From Patescibacteria group bacterium (lineage in GTDB: Bacteria > Patescibacteriota > Minisyncoccia > Portnoybacterales > UBA2143), in assembly GCA_018830295.1 (NCBI GenBank), contig JAHJSM010000003.1:2512-66511 (forward strand): a stretch of 64,000 nt of DNA. The letters run 5' to 3'. The translations under genes and the position numbers were made by a program. The notes under the pieces were generated by a model that saw only the letters and a program-made list of their open reading frames with translations, did no database searches and was not told the DNA's origin. How positions within the stretch are numbered: the first letter of the stretch is position 1; each line of letters opens with the position of its first letter. This document shows positions 22,860-41,459 of this stretch, piece by piece.

Positions 22860-22932
22860 TACATTATCCACATTGATTTTAACATAAAACATAATGTATA
22901 ATCAACATAACTAATCCCCAATGAAAGAAATT

Positions 22933-23042
22933 CAAGGTCAGACCCTTTTATGGCTTTCTTCTGCGACGAGCGCTTTAGATTTTTCTGATACGCGTGGGGC
23001 GCCCTTTAGGGCTAAAGCGTTCGGAAAAATCTAAACGCGAGT
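22933..23042. repeat. ~120-nt intergenic repeat, family B, copy 1
   Basis: caaggtcagacc...gcgctttagatttttctgatacgcgtggggcgccctttagggctaaagcgttcggaaaaatctaaacgcgag. Nested inverted repeats. It sits between divergent gene starts. Confidence 0.7.
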
Positions 23043-23046
23043 ATTT

Positions 23047-24570
23047 ATGTTTATGAAAAAAAATAAAACAATTATCCTTCTCCTTCTCATCCTATCTATC
23101 GCGACATTTTTACGCGTTTGGCAACTTGATAGCGCGCCGCCTGGACTTTATCCTGATGAAGCCATGAACGCCAACGATGCCCTAACATCATTAAATAATA
23201 ATCAATTTAAACTTTTCTACCCAGAAAACAACGGCCGCGAAGGTCTTTATTTTTGGCTCATCGCCCTTGCTTTTAAAATATTTGGCGTTTCAATCTGGTC
23301 CCTGCGTTTTACTAGCGCCATCATCGGAACTTTAACTGTCTTAGGAATTTACTTACTAACCAAAGAACTATTTTCAAAAAAAATCGCTCTTCTCTCTTCA
23401 TTTTTTCTCGCCATCTCTTTTTGGCACATCAATTTCAGCCGCATCGGCTTCCGCGCCATTCTCGTCCCATTCTTAATGTGCTTCTCTTTTTATTTCCTCC
23501 TCCGCGCGTTTCGCAAAAACAATATTCTTAACTATATTTGGGCTGGAGTATTTTTTGGTCTCGGTTTTTACAGCTATATCGCCTTTAGGGTGGCTGTCAT
23601 TTTCTTAGGTATTATTATTTTAACGCAAATTATTAAAGATATGAGATGGTCTAATCTTTGGAAAATAGGTTTATTTCTAGTTGTTATTTTTATTGTCGCT
23701 TTGCCTATTGGTATCTATTTTCTCAACAACCCTCTGGATTTCACAGGAAGAACTGGCGGGGTCTCTATTTTTTCAACGGAACAACCGCTATTAGAATTCG
23801 GAAAAAGCGCCGTTAAAATATTCTTTATGTTTAATGTCTTCGGCGATTGGAACTGGCGGCATAATTACGCTGGCTCGCCAATGCTTGTTTGGCCCATAGG
23901 CATCCTTTTTATATTAGGAATGATTTCAACGATTAAAAAACTTTTCTCGTCTGAAAAATACCAGTCCATTTTTTTATTGAGCTGGTTCGCGGTTATGCTC
24001 CTGCCAGCTATTCTCACCTATGAAGGAATGCCTCATGCCCTTCGCGCTATTGGAATTATCCCAGTGGTATATATAATATCCGCTTTGGGCGGCTTTTGGT
24101 TATTTGAAAAACTGTCATTAGCAAAAATGAAAAGCGCTAAATATCTTGCCGCTTTTTTGCTTATTTTTATTATCTTATACCCAGGCTTCAGAAACTTTAA
24201 CAAGTATTTTTTTGACTGGGCAAAAAAACCAGAAACCGCCATGTCTTTTTCTAATGATTATGTAAAAATTGGCGAATACCTCAACTCTCTTCCTGACCAA
24301 GTAAAAAAATATGTCATCGTCAATGAAAAAGGAACTCCTTATTATGGGCTCTCAATCGCCGCCCAAACGCCAATTTTCATTGAAAGCGCAAAATTCGGAA
24401 AGCCGCGCGCTACTTATCTGCCATGGCAAGAAATCGGACAAATTGAAATTTCTCCCTACAAAACTGTCATTTTAACTCTTTATAACCACCAGGCCTTTGA
24501 GGAACTTCAAAAAATGTTCCCTCAAGGAAAAATAAGACAAGACGAACCCTATCGGTTTGAAATAGAATAA
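23047..24570 (+). CDS. GT39/ArnT-like lipid-carrier-dependent glycosyltransferase
   Basis: LDSAPPGLYPDEAMNANDAL, a multi-TM PMT/ArnT architecture. Confidence 0.8.
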   Translation: MFMKKNKTIILLLLILSIATFLRVWQLDSAPPGLYPDEAMNANDALTSLNNNQFKLFYPENNGREGLYFWLIALAFKIFGVSIWSLRFTSAIIGTLTVLGIYLLTKELFSKKIALLSSFFLAISFWHINFSRIGFRAILVPFLMCFSFYFLLRAFRKNNILNYIWAGVFFGLGFYSYIAFRVAVIFLGIIILTQIIKDMRWSNLWKIGLFLVVIFIVALPIGIYFLNNPLDFTGRTGGVSIFSTEQPLLEFGKSAVKIFFMFNVFGDWNWRHNYAGSPMLVWPIGILFILGMISTIKKLFSSEKYQSIFLLSWFAVMLLPAILTYEGMPHALRAIGIIPVVYIISALGGFWLFEKLSLAKMKSAKYLAAFLLIFIILYPGFRNFNKYFFDWAKKPETAMSFSNDYVKIGEYLNSLPDQVKKYVIVNEKGTPYYGLSIAAQTPIFIESAKFGKPRATYLPWQEIGQIEISPYKTVILTLYNHQAFEELQKMFPQGKIRQDEPYRFEIE

Positions 24571-24593
24571 AATAGAAAAATAAACAAAAAGAT

Positions 24594-26336
24594 ATGTCTA
24601 ACCGTTTTACCTACGCCATCGCGTTCCTTCTTCTAATAATCTCTTTTACCCTCTGCTTTTTTACTCTCTTTGACGATTGCTGGACCTTTGACGAAACCGC
24701 GCACATCGCGTCCGGTTATTCTTATTTAACTCAACACGACTTTCGCCTCAATCCAGAACACCCGCCGCTCATTAAGGACTTAGCGGCCGCGCCTCTCTTG
24801 TTTCTTAATCTCAACTTTCCCAAAGAACATTCTGCGTGGCTCCAAGAAGGAGACCCTGTCTGGTGGCTTCAATTTGATTTCGCCAGCCAATTTTTATACC
24901 AAGCCGGCAACGACCCAGACCAAATCCTCCTTTTCGCGAGAATACCAATGATTTTATTATTTCTTTTCCTGGCTTGGTTTGTCTTTTTTTGGACAAAAAA
25001 ACTTTTTGGCAACAAGACCGCCCTGCTATCCCTTTTCTTCATCGCGTTATCTCCCACTTTTTTAGCCCATGGAAGATTAGTCACAACTGACATCGGAGCC
25101 GCTTTAGGAACAGTAATCGCAACTTGCGTCTGGTTAAAATTTTTAAAAAAGCCATCTTGGAAAAATGTTCTTTTAGCCGCTTTTATTTTAGGCATTTCTT
25201 TGCTTCTTAAATTTTCCCTGATTTTACTAATTCCATTCTTGGGCATTATTACTCTTTTTTACGCCTGGGTTTACAAAAAACCCTTCCTAAAATATATCGC
25301 CCTCTCCACGCTTATCGGTTTAATCGCTTTAATTTTTGTTATCTGGCCCATTTACCAAGCGCATACATTTAATTACCCTGTCCAGCAACAACTCAAAGAC
25401 ACTGTCTTTCGGCTTGAGAGCGCGTCTGCTCCTGAATTTATTGCAGAACCGCTTCTTTGGATGAGCGATAAACCAATCTTGAGGTCTCTTAGCCATTACT
25501 TTACTGGAATAGTAATGACTGTTAGCCGCGCTGGCGGAGGCAATACCACATTCTTTATGGGACAAATGTCCGCCGAAGCGTGGAAAAGTTATTTCCCTAT
25601 TGTTTATCTAATCAAAGAACCGCTACCATTTCACATTCTCACCCTCCTTGCCCTAATCTGGTCCCTTTATTCAATTTTTAGAAAAAAGAAAATAGCAGTC
25701 AGAAAATTGCTTTCCAAGTATTTTACGGAATTCGCTATGTTCATTTTTCTAATTATTTACTGGACTGTCAGCATCAAAGGCAATCTCAATATTGGAGTAA
25801 GACATCTTTTGCCGGTCTTCCCTTTTACTATTATTTTAGTCAGTCGCGCTACTATTTCGTGGTTAAAAGAACCCGCCTTAAAAATTAAATATATTTTTGT
25901 CGGACTTCTTCTTCTTTGGCAAGCCGTTTCAGTTATCCAAATCTATCCCAGTTTCCTCGCCTACTTCAACGAATTAGTCGGAGGTCCAGCCAACGGATAT
26001 GAATTTGTGACGGATTCCAACATTGATTGGGGTCAGGACCTAAGGCGTTTAACCGCTTTTGTTGAAGAAAACAAAATAGATAAAATTTATCTTAATTATT
26101 TCGGCGGCGGCTCCCCAACCTATTATCTCGGCGCTCGATACCAAAAATGGGACGCCAAACAAAAACCAGACCAATTGCCGCCAAACAGCTGGCTCGCCAT
26201 CTCCATCAACGAACTGCAAGGAGGAAGAGCAACCCCTGTCAAAGGATTTGACCAAAAAACCGACTATTACAACTGGCTCAACCGATACGAACCAACAGCC
26301 ATCATCGGCCACTCCATTTTTGTTTATCACTTATAA
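24594..26336 (+). CDS. second GT39/PMT_2-like membrane glycosyltransferase
   Basis: WTFDETAHIASGYSYL...EHPPLIK, multi-TM. Confidence 0.7.
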   Translation: MSNRFTYAIAFLLLIISFTLCFFTLFDDCWTFDETAHIASGYSYLTQHDFRLNPEHPPLIKDLAAAPLLFLNLNFPKEHSAWLQEGDPVWWLQFDFASQFLYQAGNDPDQILLFARIPMILLFLFLAWFVFFWTKKLFGNKTALLSLFFIALSPTFLAHGRLVTTDIGAALGTVIATCVWLKFLKKPSWKNVLLAAFILGISLLLKFSLILLIPFLGIITLFYAWVYKKPFLKYIALSTLIGLIALIFVIWPIYQAHTFNYPVQQQLKDTVFRLESASAPEFIAEPLLWMSDKPILRSLSHYFTGIVMTVSRAGGGNTTFFMGQMSAEAWKSYFPIVYLIKEPLPFHILTLLALIWSLYSIFRKKKIAVRKLLSKYFTEFAMFIFLIIYWTVSIKGNLNIGVRHLLPVFPFTIILVSRATISWLKEPALKIKYIFVGLLLLWQAVSVIQIYPSFLAYFNELVGGPANGYEFVTDSNIDWGQDLRRLTAFVEENKIDKIYLNYFGGGSPTYYLGARYQKWDAKQKPDQLPPNSWLAISINELQGGRATPVKGFDQKTDYYNWLNRYEPTAIIGHSIFVYHL

Positions 26337-27196
26337 TACACCCTTCCCTCTATCCTTAAATCCACATACTCTAAAGCGGCCAATCCCTCTTCCGTTTCGT
26401 TTTTTAAAATAACCTTGAGCGCGTCGATTTGCGAAATAGCCGGAACAGACGGATTAAAATAAATCTGCCAGCCCTGAATAGTCGTTGCTTTCAATTCTTC
26501 ATCCGAAACAAATTCAAAATCGCGCGCGTCGGGAAAGACCTTTTTGGCGGTTAAAATAAAATCAATCACCCTTGGCGGAATAACTTCGTCTCTGATTTTC
26601 GCCGAATTATTTTCGCCATAAATATTAAGAACTAAATTGCCTCCGATAAGAGGCGACTCCCGAAAAATCACGCCCTCCCGATCAATCTTAAAACAATCCC
26701 CAATCTCCCCAGGGGACAGTCCCCCGTCCGCGGGGGCTGACCCCGTTGTAGCTAAATTGTCCTCATCACTAAGGGACAGTCCCTCGTCGCGAGGGACTGT
26801 CCCTGTCTTAGTTATCACACACCAAATCCCGACACTCTCCCTCTCCCCTATTTTAATCTCCAAAACAGAAGGCATTTTTTTCAAAACATTGACCAGCCGA
26901 ATTTCAGGAAACCTTTCCAGAATCCTTTTTTCAATTTCCTCCGTCGGCGCCAAAAAAACGCTTTTTAGCGGAATAAAATAAAAAATCTTTTCTTCTAAAA
27001 CCCTTTTCGCGATTTCTTCTATCTCTGCGGATGAATAATACATCGGCTCCTTGCCATCCGCCGCCTCAACTTTAATTTCACCCACCCAAAAAAAAGGCGA
27101 CCAGACCAAAAAATAAGCCAAGCCGCCTATCAAACAAAAAAACAGTCCCAAAAAAACAAACTTTTTAAGGGACTTTTTTTTCTTTCTTTTAATCAT
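26327..27196 (-). CDS. FtsQ/DivIB-like cell-division protein (POTRA) with hairpin-element insertions
   Basis: An N-terminal TM is followed by a POTRA-like region (IRLVNVLKKMPSVLEIKIGERE). Two hairpin units sit in frame (GTVPRDEGLS...GSAPADGGLSPGE). Confidence 0.55.
   Translation of the reverse strand: MIKRKKKKSLKKFVFLGLFFCLIGGLAYFLVWSPFFWVGEIKVEAADGKEPMYYSSAEIEEIAKRVLEEKIFYFIPLKSVFLAPTEEIEKRILERFPEIRLVNVLKKMPSVLEIKIGERESVGIWCVITKTGTVPRDEGLSLSDEDNLATTGSAPADGGLSPGEIGDCFKIDREGVIFRESPLIGGNLVLNIYGENNSAKIRDEVIPPRVIDFILTAKKVFPDARDFEFVSDEELKATTIQGWQIYFNPSVPAISQIDALKVILKNETEEGLAALEYVDLRIEGRVYYK
26712..26803. repeat. two GC hairpin units inside ftsQ-like CDS
   Basis: ggggacagtcccccgtccgcgggggctgacccc ... 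agggacagtccctcgtcgcgagggactgtccct. Confidence 0.85.
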
Positions 27197-27202
27197 TAAT
27201 TT

Positions 27203-27337
27203 ACAAGGTCAGACCTTTTATTTCTTTCAGAACCTCTGACTTTTTTAGTTTCTTTTTCGCAGCAAGCACTTTAGATTTTTTTGATACGCGTGGGGCGCCC
27301 TTTAGGGCTAAAGCGTTCAAAAAAATCTAAATGCGAG
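27203..27337. repeat. family B intergenic repeat, copy 2
   Basis: It shares the same ~120-nt element as 22933-23042. Its end provides the last codons and the TAG stop of serS. Confidence 0.7.
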
Positions 27338-28559
27338 CGGTCCCTCCCATAAACTTCCGCAAAACCTCCGGAACAACAATCCCCCCATCCTTCTTCTGAT
27401 AATTCTCAATAATAGCGATCAAAATCCGCCCCATCGCGAAAGCCGTCCCATTTAAAGTGTGAACAAATTCCGTTCCCTCTTTCCCGCGATAGCGGATATT
27501 CAAACGCCGCGCTTGCCAATCAGTACAGTTGCTCGCCGAATGCGTTTCTCTGTATTCGCCTTGCCCGGGCATCCACGCTTCAATGTCCCACTTTTTCGCC
27601 GCCGGGTCGCCCAAATCGCCCGAACAAATATCAATCACTCGATAAGGAATTTCCAACATTTTCATCAACTTTTCCTCCAACGAAAAAATTAAATTATGCT
27701 CGTCCTTTGATTTATCGGGATGACAAAAACTAAACATTTCCACTTTATCAAACTGATGAACTCTCAAAATCCCCTTTGTGTCTTTCCCGTACGCCCCCGC
27801 TTCGCGCCGAAAACAAGTTGAAAATCCGACATATCTTTTGGGCAAATCCTTTTCTTCAAAAATCTCGCCGCTATGCATCGCTCCGATTGGCTGCTCGGAA
27901 GTGCCAGTCAAATACAAATCGTCTTTTTCTAAGTGATAAACCTCATCCGCTCCTCTGTCCAAATAACCCATTCCTCGCATAGGCGCGTCTTTCAGTAGGA
28001 CGGGCGGAATAACAGGAATAAATCCTTCTTTGCCTAAAACCTCAAGCGCCAATTGGATCAGCGCGAATTCCATCAAAACCGCTTCGCCTTTCAAATAGCC
28101 AAACCTCGTCCCGCTAACTTTTGCTGCCCGCGCGACATCAACAATGTCCAATTTTTCGGCAATTTCCAAATAATCCTTCGGCTTAAAATCAAATTTTCTC
28201 TTTTCCCCTTCTTCTCTTAAAACTTTGTTATCTTTATCGCTCGCCCCCTCAATCACATCGTCAAAAGGCAGATTAGGAACCTGCCTCATTAATTTATCAA
28301 ACTCCTTCTTAACCGCATCCAACCTCGGCTCCAACTCTTTAATCTCTTTCTTTATCTCCTTCGCTTTTTCACGCAAGTGTTCAACGTTCAGGGTTGAACA
28401 TTTATTCCTCTCTGCTTTCAACGCCTCAATCTTCCCCATCAACTCCCGTCGCTCCCCATCCAATTCCAAAAGCCGCTCCAAATCAACCTCCGCCTTCTTC
28501 CGACGGCACCCCTCTTTCACTTTATCTAAATTGTCCCGAATAAATTTAATATCCAACAT
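27327..28559 (-). CDS. serS: seryl-tRNA synthetase
   Basis: A class II aaRS with an N-terminal coiled-coil arm (MLDIKFIRDNLD...) and a SerS catalytic core. Confidence 0.9.
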   Translation of the reverse strand: MLDIKFIRDNLDKVKEGCRRKKAEVDLERLLELDGERRELMGKIEALKAERNKCSTLNVEHLREKAKEIKKEIKELEPRLDAVKKEFDKLMRQVPNLPFDDVIEGASDKDNKVLREEGEKRKFDFKPKDYLEIAEKLDIVDVARAAKVSGTRFGYLKGEAVLMEFALIQLALEVLGKEGFIPVIPPVLLKDAPMRGMGYLDRGADEVYHLEKDDLYLTGTSEQPIGAMHSGEIFEEKDLPKRYVGFSTCFRREAGAYGKDTKGILRVHQFDKVEMFSFCHPDKSKDEHNLIFSLEEKLMKMLEIPYRVIDICSGDLGDPAAKKWDIEAWMPGQGEYRETHSASNCTDWQARRLNIRYRGKEGTEFVHTLNGTAFAMGRILIAIIENYQKKDGGIVVPEVLRKFMGGTARI

Positions 28560-28600
28560 ATTTTTTCATAATCCCGTTCGGCTTTGGTAAAGCCGAATTA

Positions 28601-29878
28601 TTATTCCTTTGGGCGCATTAGGGGGAATAGAATTGCTTCTCTTAAGCTTTTCGCATCTGTCAATAAGAGCACCAGTCGGTCTATGCCCAGACCAAAACCA
28701 GCGGCGGGGGGCATTCCATATTCAAGCGCTTCAATAAAATCTTTATCGTATCTTTGCGCTTCCTCATCTCCTTTTTCGCGTTTTTTCTCTTGTTCCTCAA
28801 ACGCTTTTTTCTGCTCAATCGGATTATTCTGCTCGGTAAACGCTTTTATTAATTCTACTCCACAGGCAATACCCTGAAGCGCCTGTCCGTCTTTGCAAAG
28901 CGGCATATTCGGCACATTCAAAACAAAAGTTGGCTTTTCAAGTTTAGCGTAAGCCGCCTTATCGTCGCCATTTTTAACAATTTCTCCGTATTCCACTCTG
29001 TCCCATTTTTTTGGAAAAACCTTCGGATCAAGATGATACATTAAATCCTCCGTAAATTTCATCAAGTCCTCCCAATCCCAATAAGCCGCGTACCATTCCA
29101 ACATTGTAAAATCAGGATTATGCTCCCTGTCCATGCCCTCATTTCTAAAACATCTGCCAATTTCAAAGACCCTCTCAAACCCGCCCACCAAAAGCCGCTT
29201 CAAATACAATTCTGGCGCGATTCTTAAATACAAATCTATGTCCAACGCGTTAAGATGTGTCGTAAAAGGTTTCGCGTTAGCGCCCCCGTATAGCGACTGC
29301 AAAATGGGGGTCTCCACCTCCATAAAATTATTCTTTTCCAAAAACTCTCTTATTTTTTTAATAATTTCATTCCGTTTGACAAAGACCTCGCGAACATCCT
29401 TATTCATGATCAAATCCAAATATCTTTTGCGAAATCTTTCTTCAACATCCTTAATCCCGTGCCACTTTTCGGGCAAAGGCGACAAACTTTTGCTCAAAAT
29501 TTTGTAATCGTTCAGCAAAAGCGTTTTTTCTTCCTTCTTTGTTAAAAAGAGCGTCCCGCGCGCGCCGATAAAATCTCCCACATCAAAATGAGCAATAAAA
29601 AAATTATATTTCTCCTCGCCAATTCCGTCCTTTTTTAAATAAATCTGAATCTGCCCCGAGCCGTCTTCAATATTAGCGAATGTAGAACCGCCATGTTGGC
29701 GAATTGAACGCAAGCGACCGACCAAAGAGACCTCCTCGCCCCCAGCGGAAAGTTCATCAAAACCATCAAACGCCTCCTGGCAAGTATGCGTCCGCTCCGT
29801 TTCGCTCGGATACGGATTTATTTTGGCTTTGCGAATACTCTCTAATTTCTCCAGCCGATTTTGTTTTATTTCATTCAT
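28601..29878 (-). CDS. lysS: lysyl-tRNA synthetase (class II)
   Basis: An OB anticodon-binding domain is followed by LRIAPELYLKRLLVGGFERVFEIGRCFRNEG and GLGIDRL. Confidence 0.85.
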   Translation of the reverse strand: MNEIKQNRLEKLESIRKAKINPYPSETERTHTCQEAFDGFDELSAGGEEVSLVGRLRSIRQHGGSTFANIEDGSGQIQIYLKKDGIGEEKYNFFIAHFDVGDFIGARGTLFLTKKEEKTLLLNDYKILSKSLSPLPEKWHGIKDVEERFRKRYLDLIMNKDVREVFVKRNEIIKKIREFLEKNNFMEVETPILQSLYGGANAKPFTTHLNALDIDLYLRIAPELYLKRLLVGGFERVFEIGRCFRNEGMDREHNPDFTMLEWYAAYWDWEDLMKFTEDLMYHLDPKVFPKKWDRVEYGEIVKNGDDKAAYAKLEKPTFVLNVPNMPLCKDGQALQGIACGVELIKAFTEQNNPIEQKKAFEEQEKKREKGDEEAQRYDKDFIEALEYGMPPAAGFGLGIDRLVLLLTDAKSLREAILFPLMRPKE

Positions 29879-29891
29879 AAGCGCAATTTAT

Positions 29892-29922
29892 GGGGGCAGC
29901 CCCCGCAACGGGGGCTGCCCCC
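29892..29922. repeat. GC hairpin element between greA stop and lysS start
   Basis: gggggcagcccccgcaacgggggctgccccc. Confidence 0.85.
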
Positions 29923-29930
29923 ATCTTATC

Positions 29931-30404
29931 TTACTCTATCCCCACAATCTTATACCCCACCTTCCCCTTCGGCGTTTCTACTTCTATTGTATCACCAATT
30001 TGACGACCTAAAAAGGCCTGACCTAAAGGCGATTCGTTTGAAATTTTGCCCTGAACCGGGTCGGCTTCTCGCGAACCAACAATCGCAAAAATCCTTTCTT
30101 CAGCCGTAGAATTGGTCATAAGCGCCTTAACAACCGAGCCCACTTGGACTTTCTTCCCCTCTGATGGCTGCCCTTTGGACGGCTCAATTAAAACCGCGTT
30201 TTTGAGCGCCTCTTCCAATTCAGCGATCTTACCCTCGTTAAACGATTGAGCGTTTTTAGCGGCATCGTATTCGCTATTCTCGGACAAGTCGCCCATTGAC
30301 CTCGCCTCCTCCAACCGTTCAGCAATTTCTCGCCGTCCGTCCGTTTTGCGCTCCTCTAACTCCTTCTTCAATTGTACCAACCCCTCTTTGCTAATATGTT
30401 CCAT
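29931..30404 (-). CDS. greA: transcription elongation factor GreA
   Basis: LEEARSMGDLSENSEYDAAKN plus a C-terminal FKBP-like domain. The start is taken at MEHISKEGL. Confidence 0.85.
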   Translation of the reverse strand: MEHISKEGLVQLKKELEERKTDGRREIAERLEEARSMGDLSENSEYDAAKNAQSFNEGKIAELEEALKNAVLIEPSKGQPSEGKKVQVGSVVKALMTNSTAEERIFAIVGSREADPVQGKISNESPLGQAFLGRQIGDTIEVETPKGKVGYKIVGIE

Positions 30405-32277
30405 ACCTATTAAAATACCATTCCAAGACCTCTTTGGCAACTGGGACAGCCGCCTTGTGCCCCTCTCCTCCGCCCTCAATCACAATTGCTATGACGATTT
30501 GCGGATTATCATAAGGCGCGTAGCCGACAAACCAACTATGCGTTTTCCCTTCTGTCCCAAATTGAGCCGTTCCGGTTTTGCCCGCCACCTCAACGGGCAA
30601 ACTCCCTAAAGCGGCGGCCGAGCCGGTAATTACCGCCTGGCGCATTCCTTTTTGAACCGTCGCGATATTCTCCGATTGGATAAAATTGTCTTTAACAATA
30701 ACAGCATCAACAGATTTATCAACCAATCGCGGCTGATAAAAAATACCCCCGTTGGCAATAGCGGAAATAGCCGCCGCCATTTGCAAAGGCGTTACTAAAA
30801 GATCCCCCTGTCCAATTGACAAATGATATGTATCGCCTAAATACCACTTCTCGCCGCCTTGTCCAATTTTCCACTCTTCGTCTGGAATTAAACCCGCTTC
30901 TTCATAAGGCAAGTCAATTCCCGTCTTCTGTCCCAATCCAAAATTTTGAAGATATTCTTTGATTCGGTCAACGCCCAGTCCTGCTGTTTGCTCGTACCCG
31001 CCGCCAACAATATAGAAAAAAACATTACAGGACTCCGCGATCGCCTTAACAATATCCGTCAATCCATGAACCGTCCAATCGGGATAGCGATAAACAATTT
31101 CTGGGTTATAAATATTGGCGATGCTCAAAAGGCCAGTACAATTGATTTGGCGAGAAGAAGAAATCACTTTTTCTTCCAGCGCGGCGGCCGCGATTAATGG
31201 CTTAAGCGTTGAGCCGGGAGGATACTGCCCCGCGACCGCCCGATTTAAAAATGGCTGGTCATATTTTCCAAAGAGCGCGTCCAACTCCAATTGGGAAATT
31301 CCTTGAACAAGAAGATTACTGTCAAAACCAGGCAAACTGACCATCGCCAAAACCCCGCCGTTGTTCGGGTCAATCGCAACCGCCGCCGCCGCATTGTCCG
31401 CCATCCCCTCCAAAGAAGAATAAAGTTTCTTTTGCAATTCACCATCAATAAAAAGAACCAACCCCTCCCCCGGTTCAGGCAATTTAGAAGCCAATAAATT
31501 TCTTATCCGCCCCAGCGCGTCAACCTCCATTTGCTCCTGCCCCGGCTCGCCTCTCAAAATTTCCTCATATTGCCGTTCCAGCCCGTCCTTTCCAATTTGG
31601 TCGTTGAGCAAATAATTATCTCTATCTTTTAATTCTGACGGGCTAATCTGCCCTGTATAGCCGAGAATATGAGCGAAATATGCCCCAAAAGGATACTGCC
31701 GCTGGGCGTTTTTCTCCAATCGCATCCCCGGCCAATTATCAACCCAATTTTCCAAAACCAAAGCCGCCTCTCTTTCAATATTTTTAAGCAGAACTATTTG
31801 GCTCGTCTTTCCCGATGCCTCTTCTATTTTTTCTCTTAACGCGTCTTTACTCTCAACTGAAACGACTTTAATAATTTTTTCCAAAATCTTTTCCTGAACC
31901 AAAATAGAATTTTCCAAAAAATCAACTAAATTAACAACTAAATCAAAACTTGGGATATTATAAACCAACGGCTGATGAAAACGGTCGTAAATTATTCCGC
32001 GCGGAGCGCTCACCGAATAAATTCTCAATTTATTTCCCCGCGACAACTCCGAATAATATTCCCCTTTAATCACCTGAAGATAGCCCGCCCTAAAAAAAAG
32101 CCCCAATAAAACGACAGCCATGAGCGCGTATAAAAAAACAAAATTACGATTTTTAATCGGTTGCTCTAGTTTTCCTTTTCTTTCCAAAGAACGAACCGCT
32201 TCAGCGTCCAAAAAAATCTCCTCCGCTTCAACGCTCTCTTTAGACCTGTATTTTACGAAATATTTTTTTAATCCCAT
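30391..32277 (-). CDS. mrdA: penicillin-binding protein 2 (elongasome transpeptidase)
   Basis: An N-terminal TM is followed by SxxK (GSTLKP), SxN (ESCNVFF) and KTG (AGKTGTAQ). It follows mreC and mreD. Confidence 0.85.
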   Translation of the reverse strand: MGLKKYFVKYRSKESVEAEEIFLDAEAVRSLERKGKLEQPIKNRNFVFLYALMAVVLLGLFFRAGYLQVIKGEYYSELSRGNKLRIYSVSAPRGIIYDRFHQPLVYNIPSFDLVVNLVDFLENSILVQEKILEKIIKVVSVESKDALREKIEEASGKTSQIVLLKNIEREAALVLENWVDNWPGMRLEKNAQRQYPFGAYFAHILGYTGQISPSELKDRDNYLLNDQIGKDGLERQYEEILRGEPGQEQMEVDALGRIRNLLASKLPEPGEGLVLFIDGELQKKLYSSLEGMADNAAAAVAIDPNNGGVLAMVSLPGFDSNLLVQGISQLELDALFGKYDQPFLNRAVAGQYPPGSTLKPLIAAAALEEKVISSSRQINCTGLLSIANIYNPEIVYRYPDWTVHGLTDIVKAIAESCNVFFYIVGGGYEQTAGLGVDRIKEYLQNFGLGQKTGIDLPYEEAGLIPDEEWKIGQGGEKWYLGDTYHLSIGQGDLLVTPLQMAAAISAIANGGIFYQPRLVDKSVDAVIVKDNFIQSENIATVQKGMRQAVITGSAAALGSLPVEVAGKTGTAQFGTEGKTHSWFVGYAPYDNPQIVIAIVIEGGGEGHKAAVPVAKEVLEWYFNRYGTY

Positions 32278-32719
32278 TAAAAATAAGAAGCGCGATAAGT
32301 AGATTATACAAAGCGCTCCAAAATAAATATCCAACGCTAAAAATTGGTTCTAATTTAAATAAAACTAATAGAAGATTCAAAAACAAATTAAAAACAGAAA
32401 CGCCCAAAACGACCAGCCCTATTTTTACGGCAAATTTAAATTTCAAGGAAATCATATTATTAAGCCAATCAACACCGTAAGCCGCTCCAATCAAACTCAA
32501 GTTCGCTAACCCAAAAGGCAAAACCGAAAATAAGTCCAAAAAAACGCCCGCCAATAAGACATCTAACCAGACCCCCTTAAAACCGTCTAAAATAACAAAA
32601 ATCAAAGCCAAAATCAAAACCAAATTCGGCGCGACTTCCCCCACAGACAAAAAAGGAACAACCGTCGTCTGCAAAACAGCCGCCAACAACAAAGTAAAGA
32701 TAATAAATAAATGCCTCAT
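32240..32719 (-). CDS. mreD: rod shape-determining protein MreD
   Basis: A 159-aa polytopic membrane protein positioned between mreC and pbp2. Confidence 0.65.
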   Translation of the reverse strand: MRHLFIIFTLLLAAVLQTTVVPFLSVGEVAPNLVLILALIFVILDGFKGVWLDVLLAGVFLDLFSVLPFGLANLSLIGAAYGVDWLNNMISLKFKFAVKIGLVVLGVSVFNLFLNLLLVLFKLEPIFSVGYLFWSALYNLLIALLIFNGIKKIFRKIQV

Positions 32720-32741
32720 CTAATGCTCCATGGGGGCTGCC

Positions 32742-32772
32742 CCCGCAACGGGGGCAGCCCCCATCTTACTTA
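32742..32772. repeat. GC hairpin element between mreC stop and mreD start
   Basis: gggggctgcccccgcaacgggggcagccccc. Confidence 0.85.
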
Positions 32773-33530
32773 ATTACAAACACCCTCTCCAACTTCATAA
32801 AATCAACCACTGGTTTAATTTTCGCCGTTTGCGAAATTCGCGCGTCGGAAGAAATTACTTTTTGAATCTGACCAATCAGCAAGCCCGGCGGAAAGAACCC
32901 TGCTAAACCCGATGAAATCACCGTTTCGCCGCTGTTAATCTCCTCTCCTTGGGGCAACAAATCAATCACTAAATCCAACCCCTGCGCGCTTTTAACCAGA
33001 CCTGTAATCCCGGATTCTTGTATTAAAGCATTGACTTTACTATTGGGATCCGAAAGTAAACGAACTTTTGCGAATGAGCCAAGCGCTTCAATAACCTGCC
33101 CAACCAAAAGATTGCCAGCCGAAATAACAACCATCCCTTCTTCAACGCCATCTTCTTTGCCTTTATTAATTAAAAATTGCCTATTAGAGCCCAAAATATC
33201 ATACCCAATCACTTCCGCCAAAATCAATTCTCTCTCTTCATTCGCGGACAATCCTATTTGTTCCCGAAGAAAATTATTTTCCTGCTCCACCCTTTTTAGA
33301 AAAGCAACCTCGCCCAAAAGTTGAGCGTTCTCTTCTCTAAGATTGTTATTCTCCTCGCCGGTAATTCCGTTAATTTTTTGGGCAATTTGATATATTATTT
33401 TTTGAAACGAACCGGTCAATTGAAAAAAAACATTTTTAGGCGACTCCAACCACCCCTGCCCATTCATAAAAATAGCGACGGCGATGATTAGCAAAGACAA
33501 AATAAAAGGATGGCGAAAAAATTTCTTCAT
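32766..33530 (-). CDS. mreC: rod shape-determining protein MreC
   Basis: A TM is followed by coiled-coil (NNNLREENAQLLGEVAFLKRVEQENNFLREQ) and beta domains. Confidence 0.8.
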   Translation of the reverse strand: MKKFFRHPFILSLLIIAVAIFMNGQGWLESPKNVFFQLTGSFQKIIYQIAQKINGITGEENNNLREENAQLLGEVAFLKRVEQENNFLREQIGLSANEERELILAEVIGYDILGSNRQFLINKGKEDGVEEGMVVISAGNLLVGQVIEALGSFAKVRLLSDPNSKVNALIQESGITGLVKSAQGLDLVIDLLPQGEEINSGETVISSGLAGFFPPGLLIGQIQKVISSDARISQTAKIKPVVDFMKLERVFVIK

Positions 33531-33567
33531 TACGCCCCATATTACCACAACCCCAGTCACAACAAAA

Positions 33568-33644
33568 GGGGGCTGCCCCCGCAACGGGAGCAGCCCCCAT
33601 CTTAATCCCAAGGGGACTGTCCTTCGCCGCGAGGGACAGTCCCC
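33568..33644. repeat. two GC hairpin units, intergenic (one of each type)
   Basis: gggggctgcccccgcaacgggagcagccccc ... ggggactgtccttcgccgcgagggacagtcccc. Confidence 0.85.
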
Positions 33645-33651
33645 GTCTTAA

Positions 33652-33885
33652 TTACATTGACATCGGTCTTTCTTCATCTTCACTTTCCGCTGGCGTTTCC
33701 GCTGGCGCTTCCGGAGCGTCCTCAACCATTGGAGCAACTACATCAGCCGAATCATCGGATACTTCCGGCGCGGCATCAACCGCTTCAGGCGCTGAAGCTC
33801 CTTCATCCTCTTTATCTTTTTTCGCGCCCATCCAAATTGCCAAACCGCCCGCCGCGACTAAAAGAATTATAATCCATGTCCACAT
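33652..33885 (-). CDS. small membrane protein with acidic tail
   Basis: A single TM (MWTWIIILLVAAGGLAIWMGA) is followed by a D/E/A/P-rich tail. Confidence 0.35.
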   Translation of the reverse strand: MWTWIIILLVAAGGLAIWMGAKKDKEDEGASAPEAVDAAPEVSDDSADVVAPMVEDAPEAPAETPAESEDEERPMSM

Positions 33886-34040
33886 ATTTTTACTTCGCTT
33901 AAAATTTGTCTTCCTAAACACTGATGTTAAAAAAACAAACCCCAAACAAAATTACCTTTCTTTATTTAATTTATATTCACAATCCACTTTTATTATAACA
34001 AAAACAAATCAAAATAACAAAAAAATTTCGTTGTGGATAA

Positions 34041-34730
34041 CTATCTTCCCCTAATCACCATCCACGGAAACATCACAACAGCGTTAAAAATCCGCTTTAC
34101 CCGCCGCGGCTGAACGCCGAAACGCCAAGCCCATTCCAATCCAGTCGCTCGCAAAAATTTAGGCGCGCGCCTTATATCCCCTGAAATAAAATCAAACGCG
34201 CCTCCCACTCCCACCGCCAATTTAACCGAAGGCAGTTTTCTTAAATTCTCCGCGATCCATTTTTCCTGTTTCGGCATCCCTAAAGCAACGAAAAGAATTG
34301 ACGGTTTTTCTATTTGATATTCGCTAATTTTTTCTATATCTATTTCTCTAATCTCTAAGCCGTCATATTTTTCCCTCAAATTGTCCGCCGCTTTTCGCGC
34401 CACTCCCGCGCCGCCGCCTACTAAAAAAATTTGACATTCCTCTCGCGCGAATTTCTGGCAAATTTTTTCCATCAAATCAACGCCTGCGAATCGCTTCTTT
34501 AACGGCTCGCCTAAAAACCAAGAAGCAAAGACCAAACCAACCCCATCAGGAACCGCTAAATCAGCCCCGTTAAGAATTCCCCTAAATTCCTCATCTTTCC
34601 GCGCCCAAACCAAAAATTCTGGATTAAGCGTGACGATATAATGTTTCTTTTCGCTTCGCAAAAATCCGTCTATCCTTTCAAAAATTTCCTCTTCTCCTAA
34701 ATTATCCACTCTAACCCCTAAAATCTCCAT
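34041..34730 (-). CDS. WecB/TagA/CpsF-family glycosyltransferase (GT26)
   Basis: MEILGVRVDN...YIVTLNPEF...ADLAVPDGVGLV, typical of TagA/WecG. Confidence 0.8.
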   Translation of the reverse strand: MEILGVRVDNLGEEEIFERIDGFLRSEKKHYIVTLNPEFLVWARKDEEFRGILNGADLAVPDGVGLVFASWFLGEPLKKRFAGVDLMEKICQKFAREECQIFLVGGGAGVARKAADNLREKYDGLEIREIDIEKISEYQIEKPSILFVALGMPKQEKWIAENLRKLPSVKLAVGVGGAFDFISGDIRRAPKFLRATGLEWAWRFGVQPRRVKRIFNAVVMFPWMVIRGR

Positions 34731-34759
34731 AATTTTATTATAGCATAAAAGCATCATCC

Positions 34760-34892
34760 GGGGACAGTCCCCGCCGCGAGGACTGTCCCCTTCTTAACAA
34801 AGGGACATTCCAAGGGGGGCAGTCCCCCGTCTCGGGGGCTGCCCCCGTCTTAATCTCAAGGGGACTGTCCCTCGCGGCGAGGGACAGTCCCC
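34760..34892. repeat. cluster of three GC hairpin units in divergent promoter region
   Basis: ggggacagtccccgccgcgaggactgtcccc / ggggggcagtcccccgtctcgggggctgccccc / ggggactgtccctcgcggcgagggacagtcccc. Confidence 0.85.
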
Positions 34893-34939
34893 GTCTTTCT
34901 ATTGCTCTCTGCCTCAAAAAGGATATAATAATAATAAAA

Positions 34940-35362
34940 ATGATTAAAAAAGAAACGGCCATCCAGCAAATCGTCAATCACTATTTCGCAACTAAGGGCT
35001 TAAACACCGACGAGCTTAAAAAAGACGCCAAAAAAGGAAAAATTATTTATTCCAGGCATACCCGCCCCGCGAAACAACTCTTAGAACTCGCTGGTTCCGT
35101 CACAAAAGCCAAAAAAGCCATCAATAAGGTCTCAAAGTGGGCGCGCTCAAGAAACCTTGATTACGCCATTGAGACCGTTTTTAAAAAATGGCTTGAATTA
35201 GATCGCCTCAAACCAAAAGAGATCGTCAAAAAACCTTTTTTTAGAGATGAACCGATGATTTGGTCAAAGACAAAAAAGAAATGGTTTGTTATTACCAAAG
35301 ACGGCGAATGGAAAGAATTCGCCGCTAAAGAATCCGAGATTGAATGGAAATTAGAAAAATGA
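34940..35362 (+). CDS. hypothetical basic protein
   Basis: A 140-aa K-rich protein with no recognisable domain. Confidence 0.4.
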   Translation: MIKKETAIQQIVNHYFATKGLNTDELKKDAKKGKIIYSRHTRPAKQLLELAGSVTKAKKAINKVSKWARSRNLDYAIETVFKKWLELDRLKPKEIVKKPFFRDEPMIWSKTKKKWFVITKDGEWKEFAAKESEIEWKLEK

Positions 35363-36654
35363 TTCTCAACATCCAAACAGGCGCCGACAATCCCGTTTTG
35401 CGCCGAAAAGCCAAAGAAGTTAAAAAAATCAACTCTCAAATCAGAGAGCTTATTTTAAATATGAAGGAAACGCTTGAAAGCGACGGCAATTCCATCGGTT
35501 TAGCCGCTCCACAAGTGGGCAAATCACTGCGCATCATCGCAATCAGCCCCGAACTAAATGAAAAATCTATCATTTTGATCAATCCAAAAATCGTTAAAAC
35601 ATCGTTTAGAAAAATAGTTTTAGAAGAGGGCTGTTTAAGTTTACCTAATATTTCCATCCCCATTAAAAGACATTCCAAAATAACGGTCCAAGCACTCAAC
35701 GAAAAAGGCGAGCCAATCAAGATAAAAACCGAAGGCCTCGCCGCCCGAATTATCCAACACGAAATCGACCATTTAGAGGGTATTTTAATTATTGACTCCC
35801 TCTTGGGGACAGTCCCTCGCCACGAGGGACTGTCCCCGGATTATCTTAAAACAATTTTTATCGGGACTTCTGAATTTGCCGTTCCTGTTTTGGAGGCGCT
35901 TGTTCGCTGTTCATTGTTCGCCGTTCAATGCGTTATTACCGCTCCCGATAAACCCGCTCCCTCGCCGATTAAAATAGCCACTTTGCAAAACGGGTTGCCT
36001 ATCTTACAACCCGAAAAAATATCAAAAGCCGCGGTGAAAATATCCAATTTAAAGCCCGACTTAATCATCACCGCCTCTTATGGACAAATCATTCCAAAAA
36101 ATATTTTAGACATTCCAAAATACGGCTCCATTAACATCCACCCTTCGCTTTTGCCAAAATATCGCGGACCGTCCCCCATCCAAACGGCCATTTTGAACGG
36201 CGACAAAAATACTGGCATTTCCGTGATGCTTATGGACGAAAAAATGGACCACGGGCCGATTATCGCCCAAAAAAAAGTCGCTATAAAAAAGCGCGAAAAC
36301 TATCAGGACTTGGAAAAAAGATTATCTCTCCTCTCGGCAAATTTTTTGTTAAAGATTCTGCCACGATATATCCAAGGAAAAATTAATCCGAAAAAACAAA
36401 ACAATTCTAAAGCCAGTTATACTAAAATACTTTCCCGCCAAGACGGACAAATTAAACCAAAACAAACCGCCCAAGAAATTGAAAGAATGCTCTGCGCTTT
36501 TACGCCTTGGCCCGGCGTCTGGACTATTATTAAAAAACGCCGAGTAAAAATCCTCAAAGCGAAGGTCGTCCAAGGGCGACTTCTCTTAGAAATTGTCCAG
36601 CCCGAAGGCAAAAAACCAATGACCGCGGAGGAATTTTTTCGTGGATTAAGGTAA
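35344..36654 (+). CDS. def-fmt: peptide deformylase - methionyl-tRNA formyltransferase fusion
   Basis: Def motifs GLAAPQVG, EGCLSLP and HEIDHLEG are present. A hairpin-derived linker SLLGTVPRHEGLSPDYLK follows. The Fmt N-terminus IFIGTSEFAVPVLEAL lacks its own Met and continues to an Fmt C-terminal domain. Confidence 0.8.
   Translation: MEIRKMILNIQTGADNPVLRRKAKEVKKINSQIRELILNMKETLESDGNSIGLAAPQVGKSLRIIAISPELNEKSIILINPKIVKTSFRKIVLEEGCLSLPNISIPIKRHSKITVQALNEKGEPIKIKTEGLAARIIQHEIDHLEGILIIDSLLGTVPRHEGLSPDYLKTIFIGTSEFAVPVLEALVRCSLFAVQCVITAPDKPAPSPIKIATLQNGLPILQPEKISKAAVKISNLKPDLIITASYGQIIPKNILDIPKYGSINIHPSLLPKYRGPSPIQTAILNGDKNTGISVMLMDEKMDHGPIIAQKKVAIKKRENYQDLEKRLSLLSANFLLKILPRYIQGKINPKKQNNSKASYTKILSRQDGQIKPKQTAQEIERMLCAFTPWPGVWTIIKKRRVKILKAKVVQGRLLLEIVQPEGKKPMTAEEFFRGLR
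35805..35837. repeat. GC hairpin element exactly at def/fmt junction (in frame)
   Basis: ggggacagtccctcgccacgagggactgtcccc. Confidence 0.85.
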
Positions 36655-36663
36655 CCCGCGGAT

Positions 36664-36694
36664 GGGGGCTGCCCCCGCAGCGGGGGCAGCCCCC
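36664..36694. repeat. GC hairpin element downstream of def-fmt, upstream of rpsF
   Basis: gggggctgcccccgcagcgggggcagccccc. Confidence 0.85.
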
Positions 36695-36741
36695 AAATTT
36701 ACTTCTTGACCTTATTCTTGTTTTTTGGTACCCTATAACCG

Positions 36742-37269
36742 ATGAATGAACAAAACAAAATATATCAATTAACTTGTCTTTTTTCTCCACTCTTAAGTTC
36801 TGAAGAATCCGACAAATTAGTTCAAAAAATTAAAAAAGAAATTACCGACCGCGAGGGTTCTTTTGATTTGCCGTCCGCATTTTTAGTAAAAGAGAATCTA
36901 ACTAAAAAGAGATTATCTTACCCAATTAAAAAAGAACAGGAAGCGCTTTTTATAAACATAAACTTCACCGCCCCTGCTGAAGCGATTGGCCAAATTGTAA
37001 ATCAAATCGGGTCAGAGAAAGATGTCCTTCGCTGTCTGGCTACTCTGGAGAAAAAAAGCAAACCCAAACCACAGCCAGACAAAAACGAATTTGATTTTGA
37101 ATTCGTTGATAAAGTAGAACCGCTTGTTAAAAAAGAAATTGAGCCAGAAAAACAAATAGAAAAAAAAGAAGAAGAAACAACCGAAGAAGAAATCCCAGAC
37201 AAATCCTCAAAAGCAAAAGTCAAAATTGAAGAATTAGACAAAAAGTTAGAAGAAATATTAAATCAATAA
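36742..37269 (+). CDS. rpsF: ribosomal protein bS6 with acidic C-terminal extension
   Basis: LSYPIKKEQEALFININF matches the bS6 core. It precedes ssb-rpsR in the classic operon order. Confidence 0.7.
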   Translation: MNEQNKIYQLTCLFSPLLSSEESDKLVQKIKKEITDREGSFDLPSAFLVKENLTKKRLSYPIKKEQEALFININFTAPAEAIGQIVNQIGSEKDVLRCLATLEKKSKPKPQPDKNEFDFEFVDKVEPLVKKEIEPEKQIEKKEEETTEEEIPDKSSKAKVKIEELDKKLEEILNQ

Positions 37270-37270
37270 T

Positions 37271-37753
37271 ATGAATTTAAATAAAGTTATTATTGTCGGG
37301 CGGTTGACGCGCGACCCAGAATCAAGAGCAATGCCTTCGGGAAAAAGCGTTGTTTCTTTGGGTATCGCGACCAACAGTTTTTGGACAGACGCGAGTGGAA
37401 ATAAAAAGGAAGCGACAGAATACCATAATATCGTTGTCTTTGGAAAATTAGCCGATACTTGTTCCCAATACCTTACAAAAGGACAGTTAATTTTGGTGGA
37501 GGGACGAATTCAAACCCGTTCTTGGGACGACCAAAGCGGAAATAAAAAATATAAAACAGAAATAATTGCCAACAACATGCAAATGGGACCAAGGCCGGGA
37601 GGAAGCCAAGCGGCGCCAAACACTACAACAAACCAGCCAAACCGACCCGCCCCCGCTCCCGCGCCTGTTTCCCAAGAAGATATTCCCGTGATTAACGCCG
37701 AAGAACCAATGGAAGTGAAAAACGAAGTTGATGTAGAAAGCATCCCCTTTTAA
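37271..37753 (+). CDS. ssb: single-stranded DNA-binding protein
   Basis: OB fold (VIIVGRLTRDPE...YHNIVVFGKLA...LVEGRIQTRSW) with a C-terminal DIPF tail. Confidence 0.9.
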   Translation: MNLNKVIIVGRLTRDPESRAMPSGKSVVSLGIATNSFWTDASGNKKEATEYHNIVVFGKLADTCSQYLTKGQLILVEGRIQTRSWDDQSGNKKYKTEIIANNMQMGPRPGGSQAAPNTTTNQPNRPAPAPAPVSQEDIPVINAEEPMEVKNEVDVESIPF

Positions 37754-37768
37754 TTTTATTAAACACTT

Positions 37769-37972
37769 ATGATTAAAAATTGCCCATTTTGCCAGGAAAA
37801 AGATTTAGAGATTAATTACCAAGACACCGAAACACTTTTTCGGTTTACTTCAGGACAAGCCAAAATAATCACCCCAAAACGAACCGGCGTCTGCGCTAAA
37901 CACCAAAGACAGCTCGCCAAAGCGATAAAAAGAGCCCGCGTCATGGGGCTCATGCCATTTATAAGGAAATAA
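37769..37972 (+). CDS. rpsR: ribosomal protein bS18
   Basis: CPFC...INYQDTETLFRFTS...KHQRQLAKAIKRAR. Confidence 0.85.
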   Translation: MIKNCPFCQEKDLEINYQDTETLFRFTSGQAKIITPKRTGVCAKHQRQLAKAIKRARVMGLMPFIRK

Positions 37973-37989
37973 AGAAATAAGCGTTTTAT

Positions 37990-38142
37990 ATTTTTTTGAT
38001 ACGCGTGGGGCGCCCTTTAGGGCTAAAGCGTTCAGAAAAATCTAAACGCGAACTTTCCGAGCAAGCATTCTGAAATTTCTGATGCGTGTAGGGTTCCCGT
38101 TCCGACGGGATAAAACGCTCAGAAATTTCAGAATGCGAGCGA
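37990..38142. repeat. family B intergenic repeat, copy 3, plus a diverged tandem unit
   Basis: Unit 1 is nearly identical to copies 1 and 2. Unit 2 (about 38058-38142) keeps the same architecture with different arms (cattctgaaatttctgatgcgtg...cgctcagaaatttcagaatgcgag). It lies between the convergent ends of rpsR and recA. Confidence 0.7.
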
Positions 38143-38144
38143 TC

Positions 38145-39155: not shown

Positions 39156-39259
39156 AAAAATTTTTAATTTCCAATTTTTAAAACTCTCAAATTTTTCTTA
39201 ATCTTGTTCTTGTTTTTCTTATTTTTCTTATTTGGAAATTGATAATTGAGAATTGAAAA

Positions 39260-41401: not shown

Positions 41402-41417
41402 AATTCTAAGATTCTAA

Positions 41418-41448: not shown

Positions 41449-41459
41449 GTCTTTCTTTG

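Follow-up and report, generated by a model that had tools for sequence, protein, structure and literature searches.

The 64-kb window analysed here (64,000 nt of contig JAHJSM010000003.1 from the Patescibacteria assembly GCA_018830295.1) carries four units of a small palindromic repeat, and we conclude that this repeat family is probably a modular, non-coding, palindromic mobile DNA element of the kind represented by the Rickettsia palindromic elements (RPEs) and by the repetitive extragenic palindromes (REPs) and bacterial interspersed mosaic elements (BIMEs). Two hairpin subfamilies, A and D, together with an optional 5' module, M, would be spreading or turning over within a Patescibacteria species cluster. 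The structure of the units, its conservation, their presence/absence polymorphism, the remodelling of gene ends and a bias in orientation are all observed directly.

A 37-nt core, TGATACGCGTGGGGCGCCCTTTAGGGCTAAAGCGTTC, occurs exactly three times in the window, at 22986, 27282 and 37997, always on the + strand and with a chance expectation of 0.00; a degenerate form of the core gives four matches against 0.22 expected, the additional one being a diverged unit at 38079. A repeat search likewise places the three A-type copies in one family (D10; 79–83% identity over 96 nt). Using covariance models (CMs) built from the copies and run with filters off, we found exactly four units in the window, at 22963–23044, 27259–27340, 37974–38055 and 38058–38142, all on the + strand. 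These results bear out the three copies and one diverged unit described in a first-pass annotation of the window. No further unit or decayed copy was detected in the window or the other loci with filters off and a second model made from 11 units, nor in two additional segments, namely L020, 21 kb of the same genome, and L008, the 2.5 kb that precede the window. Together with the window, these segments bring the sequence read to ~88 kb, or ~12% of the genome.

The hairpin unit is ~82–85 nt long (81 nt in the related locus L025) and reaches up to 138 nt together with the 5' module. The first copy, c1, has the long form (22921..23045, +), in which the module M (22933..22962) carries the palindrome AAGGTCWGACCTT in an imperfect version, AAGGTCAGACCC, and is followed by an A-type hairpin unit (22963..23044; CM score 102.4 bits; RNA fold -40.6 kcal/mol, z -3.2). 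The second, c2, is also of the long form (27205..27342, +). Its module (27205..27258), which is ~25 nt longer than that of c1, carries a perfect palindrome, AAGGTCAGACCTT, that can also form a stem with the downstream TCTGACTTT and is followed by a T-run, and its A-type hairpin unit (27259..27340; 105.6 bits) has Watson-Crick pairs at 28 of 28 positions. The sequence common to the two modules (CAAGGTCAGACC...) is found nowhere else in the window. The third copy, c3 (37974..38055, +), is a short A-type form with no M module, and it is followed by D4 (38058..38142, +; 81.7 bits; RNA fold -45.1 kcal/mol, z -6.7), which represents the D subfamily. Compared with the limits first proposed, c3 begins ~16 nt earlier.

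The three genomic contexts are as previously described, judging from the gene positions. Copy c1 lies between divergent starts, with an LTD gene (-) ending at 22892 and a PMT-family gene (+) starting at 23047, and sits in the 5' leader of the latter, downstream of a promoter-like TTGATT-18-TATAAT found by promoter scan (22873–22902). Copy c2 lies between serS (stop codon at 27327–27329) and the gene that follows it, which share the - strand; the c3–D4 pair lies between the convergent genes rpsR (S18) and recA.

Each unit folds into one long hairpin, whether as RNA or DNA and whichever strand is taken, with RNA folds of -25.7 to -45.1 kcal/mol (z -2.5 to -6.7) and DNA folds of -20 to -29 kcal/mol (z -4 to -9). 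From the outside inwards, the hairpin begins with 2–6 outer pairs, followed by a 2x2 internal loop that reads GA/GA or AA/GA in D4 and the A-type units. Next come a main stem of 18 bp, from which a C bulges in most A-type units, then a bulged U and a 4-bp inner stem. Above the inner stem lies an asymmetric loop, 5' GURGGGN against 3' UAAA(A), which is capped by an apical hairpin of 4–6 bp. Specifically, the c1 unit has a GA/GA loop, the bulged C in its 18-bp stem, the bulged U, the loop GUGGGGC / UAAA and the apical hairpin GCCC-UUUA-GGGC, with 27 Watson-Crick pairs and one G.U pair among 28. The diverged unit D4 keeps this architecture with different arm sequence, as the first-pass annotation had recognised: it has a perfect 18-bp stem of other sequence, the inner stem GCGU/ACGC and the apical hairpin CCCGU-UCCG-ACGGG, whose UCCG loop matches the UNCG tetraloop pattern. 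The small central palindromes that were also pointed out (GGCGCC, CCCTTTAGGG) are present in the centre of the copies; since they are kept neither in D4 nor in the relatives, they are incidental and not a conserved feature.

The fold is maintained by compensatory changes. Among 25 comparable pairs of c2 and D4, 17 are identical and eight have changed on both sides, all remaining paired, while no pair shows a one-sided change; two of the four inner-stem pairs, and the pair that closes the apical stem, are among those changed. Without being given this structure, RNAalifold arrives at the same one. Across the first six sequences, 93.8% of the cells pair, with eight doubly changed pairs; across an alignment of 11 units from at least three lineages (A5), 94.3% pair and 12 of 27 pairs show double changes, counts that are inflated because fitting this alignment to the model works in favour of the structure. 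In both the 6- and the 11-sequence sets, the covariation score was reached by 0 of 500 shuffles, and slid controls pair at 21–48%. The covariation check thus finds a conserved secondary structure with compensatory changes. In addition, among the A-type copies, 11 of 37 arm columns are variable compared with one of 32 core columns (Fisher p = 0.004). Some constraint acts on the sequence of the centre, but only on the pairing of the arms.

We compared the hairpin with known RNA and DNA motifs. By eye, we rejected the hammerhead (CUGAUGA is not kept), the K-turn (the bulge is 1 nt, with no G.A/A.G pair after a 3-nt bulge), the sarcin-ricin loop, an integration host factor (IHF) site and TIGR arrays. 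Inspection likewise gave no support for an integron attC site, as there are no RYYYAAC / GTTRRRY core sites at the arm ends and the neighbours are housekeeping genes. The Rfam gathering threshold is reached in the window by two tRNAs alone; for the c3/D4 locus, searched at E <= 10, the best sub-threshold matches are at chance level. ARAGORN found only two unrelated tRNAs.

All three sites in the window (c1, c2 and rpsR–recA) have empty alleles in near-identical strains, at 95–99% identity. For the rpsR–recA site, other assemblies were searched for the identical S18 protein, which gave seven strains with flanks 92–99.98% identical to the window, and two JGI contigs from a metagenome scan were added (L006, the same contig as L013, and L007); the alleles derive from assemblies made independently of one another (ENA, NCBI, JGI and Logan). 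Three occupancy states were observed. The spacer is 15 nt long in L010, L011 and L014, where both units are absent; 92 nt in L006/L013, where D4 stands alone; and 172 nt in the window, L009, L012, L007 and L015, where c3 and D4 are both present. The empty spacer holds a classical bidirectional terminator, AAAAAACGCGTC-AATTAC-GACGCGTTTTT. In the filled allele, the position of this terminator is taken by a small hairpin, GCGAG-CGATCTTAA-CTCGC, followed by T5 (38132..38160, +), to which D4 contributes its 3' edge and recA its end, and which is read directly from the sequences. The last recA codon (38145–38150 region; 3220–3225 in L010) is TCG in the empty and AGT in the filled alleles, i.e., three bases differ and both codons encode Ser. 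As a consequence of this change, the end of recA pairs with the terminal GCGAG of the element as a new left arm, giving the small hairpin and its T5.

The other two sites are empty in L018, a contig reached via a serS orthologue with 97% identity, even though its PMT region is 99.2% identical to that of the window. At the c1 site, L018 reads ...AATCCCCA|CCCC|TATGTC..., as opposed to an insert of ~125 nt in the window, and the whole c1 segment is absent. The insertion extends the 33-nt spacer to 154 nt and rebuilds the start region of the PMT-family gene, a glycosyltransferase, whose first codons change from MSFLKK to MFMKK. At the c2 site, only 2 nt separate the serS stop TAA from the ATG of the next gene in L018; in the window, ~15 nt coding the ancestral serS C-terminus are replaced by the 138-nt insert. 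The serS protein of L018 ends in GGVKKIG and all distant orthologues end in GG(V/I)(K/E)KIG (e.g., GGIEKIG), compared with GGTARI in the window. Since the L018 end matches every more distant orthologue, the filled c2 state is derived and the empty state ancestral. It had been proposed that the repeat supplies the last three codons and the TAG of serS; the right arm and 3' edge of c2 do indeed provide the stop codon, together with the last four codons, ACC GCT CGC ATT (27327..27341, -), which encode T-A-R-I.

Comparing empty and filled alleles, we found no target-site duplication at any of the four junction pairs (c1, c2, D4 and c3). Instead, the insertions replace or rewrite 4–21 nt of the target. 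No shared target motif is visible at the five junctions examined.

The family extends beyond these sites. A metagenome scan revealed a fifth one, between a GT2 gene and the nifS promoter (L004/L005). A member of the L005 NifS cluster lies on the window's own contig; L005 therefore belongs to the same species cluster as the window and is not another organism. The homologues all come from metagenome assemblies; the species of the window is also represented by the NCBI metagenome-assembled genome GCA_018820055.1, and one member of the species cluster is annotated Candidatus Portnoybacteria. Using six-frame translations of the units as queries, we retrieved two DprA proteins (P0253 and P0252) from other organisms that contain translated units. 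These proteins share ~60% identity with the window's DprA overall and ~80% over the conserved domains. In L025, dprA contains two in-frame A-type units (197–277 and 839–919), each of 81 nt or 27 codons and open in the frame used, and a third unit is intergenic; in L026, dprA contains an in-frame D-type unit at 1186–1270. All dprA units are antisense to the mRNA. Half units and solo arms occur beside the L025 and L026 units, and an A unit adjoins a half D unit in L025. Related units are thus present in at least two lineages beyond the species cluster.

Scanning 185,579 species-representative genomes with the exact and the degenerate core gave no matches, a result that does not imply absence, as the pattern (…TAAARCGYTC) was too strict and misses the L025-type core (…GCGATC); a relaxed core pattern is TGATRCGYGTRGGGYKCC-N6-16-GGVTAAARCRHTCA. 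Viral contigs (scanned twice) and BLAST searches of phages and plasmids gave no match, and a shallow literature search found no description of such elements in Patescibacteria. The window's own dprA (53819–54689, -) is split into two open reading frames (ORFs) by a frame change near 54345–54365. It carries GC-rich hairpins at 53976–54056, translated ...GMGAAPEDEGLSPREGMGAAP..., at the same linker position as the L025 and L026 units, and this linker looks like a hot spot of palindromic insertion. A gene of the AAA_14/DUF4143 ATPase family lies beside dprA in the window (54686–55942); L018 has a member of this family between asnS and serS (5500–6690) that is missing from the corresponding place in the window (28560–28600). 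This gene appears to be variable or mobile.

The units share one orientation. In nine of nine distinct units (four from the window, three from L025 and one each from L005 and L026), the GURGGG strand is on the C-rich strand, with a GC skew on the element's top strand of -0.17 to -0.22 in the window, L005, L025 and L026. Along the whole window, the skew is strongly negative (-0.1 to -0.3); therefore, the window lies within one replichore and its + strand is the C-rich one. With respect to transcription, the orientation is mixed: c1 is sense in its 5' leader, the c3–D4 pair is sense with respect to rpsR and antisense with respect to recA, and the remaining units are antisense. Since the skew of the window stays negative even where genes lie on the + strand, the replication strand is more likely than the mRNA to be the common denominator of the orientation.

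From these observations, we propose the following course of events. The two paired 18-bp arms present the conserved asymmetric centre, consisting of the bulged U, GURGGG opposite UAAA and the apical hairpin. A trans-acting enzyme might recognise this centre on a folded single strand, at the replication fork or in other single-stranded DNA, as in the REP/RAYT (REP-associated tyrosine transposase) or IS200/IS605 systems. This suggestion is based on the conserved centre standing on a stem of free sequence, on the missing target duplication and on the uniform strand; conversely, a single-strand mechanism would explain both the lack of duplication and the use of one strand relative to GC skew. Insertion, the step that the alleles record, proceeds with no target-site duplication and with the loss of a few target bases. 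The element would then persist only where the host tolerates it, i.e., in tiny spacers, at gene ends, at terminator positions and in flexible parts of DprA in the relatives, and would survive at gene ends by supplying a new stop (serS) or by bordering a rebuilt start (PMT gene). An inserted unit would be co-transcribed, putting a perfect duplex of 18–22 bp into the mRNA. As a likely side effect, this duplex could be cut by RNase III, stabilise the mRNA or stand in for a terminator. Given such a duplex and an RNase III encoded in the window's genome (L020), an effect of the unit on mRNA processing or stability is plausible.

We weighed this reading against three others. The first-pass annotation had left the choice between a structured RNA and a MITE-like element (miniature inverted-repeat transposable element), and part of each description fits, as the hairpin is kept by compensatory changes and the DNA is mobile or unstable. 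If the family were a multi-copy gene for a structured non-coding RNA, or a cis-acting RNA module for processing, stability or termination, selection would act on the fold and copies would spread by duplication. This would account for the strong conservation of the fold, for the unpaired GURGGG / UAAA kept across lineages, for the UNCG-like UCCG loop of D4 and the tandem GA/GA or AA/GA loop at the base of A-type stems, for a core more conserved than the arms, and for the placement of c1 in a 5' leader behind a promoter-like site and of c3/D4 at a former terminator position. It is difficult to reconcile, however, with units that match no Rfam family at the gathering threshold or at E <= 10, have no conserved promoter or terminator, and stand in inconsistent contexts (sense in a 5' untranslated region, antisense within an operon, between convergent genes). 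Nor does it explain why every copy is dispensable in near-identical strains or why counts of G.U versus A.C show no strand preference for folding. Because the dprA copies are in frame and antisense to the mRNA, because presence varies among strains and because the transcriptional contexts are inconsistent, the MITE-like half of the earlier alternative describes the family better than an RNA gene does, and we regard a dedicated RNA gene as unlikely. A classical MITE, in the sense of a deletion derivative of an insertion sequence with a DDE transposase that moves by cut-and-paste through terminal inverted repeats, is less probable still. The units are indeed small, non-coding and present in several copies, with inverted-repeat arms and presence/absence polymorphism, but neither family-wide terminal repeats nor target-site duplications were found (0 of 4 junction pairs, with target bases lost instead). 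The strict definition fails for want of this duplication, and the family is not a strict MITE. Moreover, the arms differ wholly between A and D and the centre is conserved, which is the reverse of what is expected for terminal repeats bound by a transposase; variable extra modules accompany the hairpin; and no parent insertion sequence was found in the ~88 kb of genome read, in phages, in plasmids or in viral contigs.

The third reading dispenses with mobility altogether: an ancestral regulatory or terminator sequence would have been lost repeatedly, and the likeness among copies would stem from ectopic gene conversion or templated break repair. Imprecise junctions with locally rewritten flanks fit such a history, and so do the flanks of L006, which lacks c3 and is yet closer to the window than L007, which has it, and the 133-nt spacer with M-type palindromes at the serS site of L024, a related species. 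We nevertheless consider repeated loss about as improbable as a classical MITE, given that the empty serS allele keeps the C-terminus of all distant orthologues, making the filled state the derived one, that the same unit turns up at sites unrelated to each other, in further species and within coding sequence, and that a single site (rpsR–recA) shows three occupancy states. Several results do weigh against a mobile palindromic element. No transposase, RAYT, HUH or other mobilising gene was found in the ~88 kb of genome read, and genes for a transposase, an HUH enzyme or a reverse transcriptase were likewise missing when the remaining window ORFs were scanned against Pfam. The copy number is low, at four units in ~88 kb, all within 15 kb. 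A loss of 4–21 nt of target is atypical of any characterised transposition chemistry and could reflect templated repair or recombination with diverged donor alleles, a route that would also fit the imprecise junctions and the variable cargo accompanying the hairpin, and for which we leave room. The orientation bias amounts to ~6–9 events, which are not all independent and are partly confounded with gene orientation. The G.U and A.C counts single out no folded strand. Finally, besides the inflated pairing counts noted above, compensatory changes can arise by arm-to-arm conversion of a DNA palindrome with no selection on the fold; therefore, such changes alone are no proof that a fold is selected.

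Among known systems, a close functional parallel to the mobile palindromic element proposed here is given by the RPEs, which are palindromic selfish repeats found both between genes and in frame within protein genes, where they are translated, and for which no transposase is known (PMC10969869). Both families consist of palindromic selfish repeats of roughly 100–150 bp in the reduced genome of a host-dependent bacterium, lie between genes as well as in translated frames (here DprA of L025 and L026), remodel gene ends and have no known transposase. The likeness is one of function, drawn from descriptions of RPEs, and the host is a Patescibacterium and not Rickettsia. The two differ in that no sequence relationship is claimed, the phylum is another one, the copy number seen is low, the window copies stand at gene edges, and two hairpin subfamilies co-occur with a separate palindromic module.

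REPs, BIMEs and REPINs (REP doublets) are extragenic hairpin palindromes mobilised by RAYT, a Y1 HUH transposase related to the TnpA of IS200/IS605. Individual REPs are 20–40 nt long, with a 5' GTAG-type tetranucleotide and a stem, cause no target-site duplication and are thought to need a folded single strand for their function. The present family resembles them in its hairpin-forming extragenic palindromes, in the mosaic of two adjoining unit types (c3–D4 compared with Y and Z REPs), in the absence of target-site duplication and in a strand bias that fits a folded-single-strand mechanism. In contrast to REPs, its units are 82–85 nt long, have a conserved asymmetric centre in place of a 5' tetranucleotide and are far fewer, and the ~88 kb read contain no RAYT gene. 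Palindrome-associated transposable elements (PATEs), derived from IS200/IS605, are likewise non-autonomous hairpins that cause no duplication and for which an orientation bias relative to replication is expected. Unlike the units described here, which share no target motif, PATEs insert 3' of a fixed tetra- or pentanucleotide with no target deletion, and no TnpA or TnpB gene lies near our units.

Correia and ERIC (enterobacterial repetitive intergenic consensus) elements are relevant at the RNA level, as the stems of Correia RNAs are cleaved by RNase III and ERIC stems modulate decay (PMC10969869). Like ERIC and the Correia elements (Correia repeat enclosed elements, CREE; Neisseria miniature insertion sequences, NEMIS), which are imperfect palindromes of 100–200 bp, the family studied here varies among strains, would be co-transcribed with its neighbours and can supply regulatory signals. 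It shows no sequence similarity to either, has neither the TA target-site duplication nor the conserved terminal repeats of Correia elements, and would only by inference be processed by RNase III.

A more far-reaching proposal is that the units are substrates of an undescribed, strand-specific, hairpin-guided insertion system of the candidate phyla radiation (CPR). Such a system would recognise the bulged U and the GURGGG / UAAA loop on a sequence-free 18-bp stem and would insert units into single-stranded DNA at the fork with no duplication, permissively enough to create new gene termini and in-frame segments; its enzyme need not be a known HUH transposase. This is speculative, and we give it little weight, at about the level of the structured-RNA reading. 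If true, it would give ultra-small genomes a way to innovate in proteins and in regulation.

The module M adds a component of a different kind. In the long form of the element, it carries the 13-bp palindrome AAGGTCWGACCTT, which recurs beside promoter -35 boxes elsewhere; the view that the family is not a simple operator thus stands for the hairpin units, while for module M an operator-like component may exist. The intergenic unit of L025 is preceded, in element orientation, by a module with AAGGTCWGACC inverted repeats. Since a module of the M type accompanies the hairpin there too, the long form (M plus hairpin) is a conserved composite. In L024, the 133-nt spacer downstream of serS has the M-type palindromes but no hairpin core. 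The palindrome CAAGGTTAGACCTTG, the same motif as in the c1 and c2 modules, lies at 3296–3310 of the window, upstream of tRNA-Asn (-), where it overlaps a -35-like TTGATT, and in L025 the M motif overlaps TTGATA-18-TATAAT directly before a start codon. Judging from these positions, the M-type palindrome may be an operator or a promoter-associated site.

These findings bear on how CPR/Patescibacteria genomes are viewed and annotated. Such genomes are among the smallest and most streamlined, yet the 64-kb window holds at least three families of small insertion modules. Clean pairs of empty and filled alleles show these modules rewriting gene ends (the serS C-terminus and stop, the glycosyltransferase start) and replacing a terminator. 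In the relatives, the units are part of the DprA protein, which brings the "selfish DNA in protein-coding genes" of Rickettsia to an unrelated lineage with reduced genomes. Practical consequences include annotation errors, strain-typing markers and assembly breaks. In addition to altered gene termini, one such error is a 37-aa ORF called across c1 in the public annotation (22921–23034, +). It has no counterpart at the other copies, and a search against 1.84 billion representative proteins matched only itself and unrelated repetitive proteins; the ORF is most likely spurious, a translation of the repeat. Should the strand bias extend to the whole genome, the family would also provide a tractable handle on the mechanism of mobilisation.

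Two further repeat families occur in the window. Far commoner than the units described above is a family of GC-rich perfect hairpins, with at least 35 copies between 18496 and 63960 (e.g., 29890–29926, 32730–32766 and 41416–41452) and none in the first 16 kb. It takes the forms GGGGGCTGCCCCC-GCAAC-GGGGGCAGCCCCC and GGGGACAGTCCC variants, which are often paired and mostly lie just after genes. Two GC-rich hairpins at 26711–26807 lie inside the ORF 26327..27196 (-), which encodes a 289-aa protein downstream of serS; L018 lacks ~105 nt at this ORF and encodes a 248-aa protein, so that the difference looks like an in-frame insertion of this family.

The other family consists of TTGAAAATTGA(A/G)AATTGAAAATT-type runs and their inverted copies, at 5751–5782, 39165–39258, 45051–45118 and 45477–45535 of the window and at 11183–11345 of L020. 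It also varies among strains. Its 93-nt recA–ftsK segment is present in the window, L010 and L012 and absent in L009, L011 and L013, and a 163-nt version fills the nifS–nifU spacer, which is 3 nt long in L019 and L005. Between rpoB and rpoC, a gene for a 120-aa '23S rRNA intervening sequence protein' (PF05635; 45112–45474, -) has TTGAAAATTGA repeats on both sides, and these flanking repeats suggest that the gene is an inserted cassette.

At the contig end beside tRNA-Asn (window 1–3300; L008 8207–13540), the GC content is lower (34%), and the genes encode a large serine recombinase, a helix-turn-helix (HTH) protein, a cytosine methylase, an R.HinP1I-like endonuclease, Vsr and a ThsB-type TIR protein; this region is likely an integrated island. 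Near the opposite end of the window, a giant ORF (56016–63986, -) encodes ~2656 aa and contains internal direct repeats (families D6, D7, D11 and D12).

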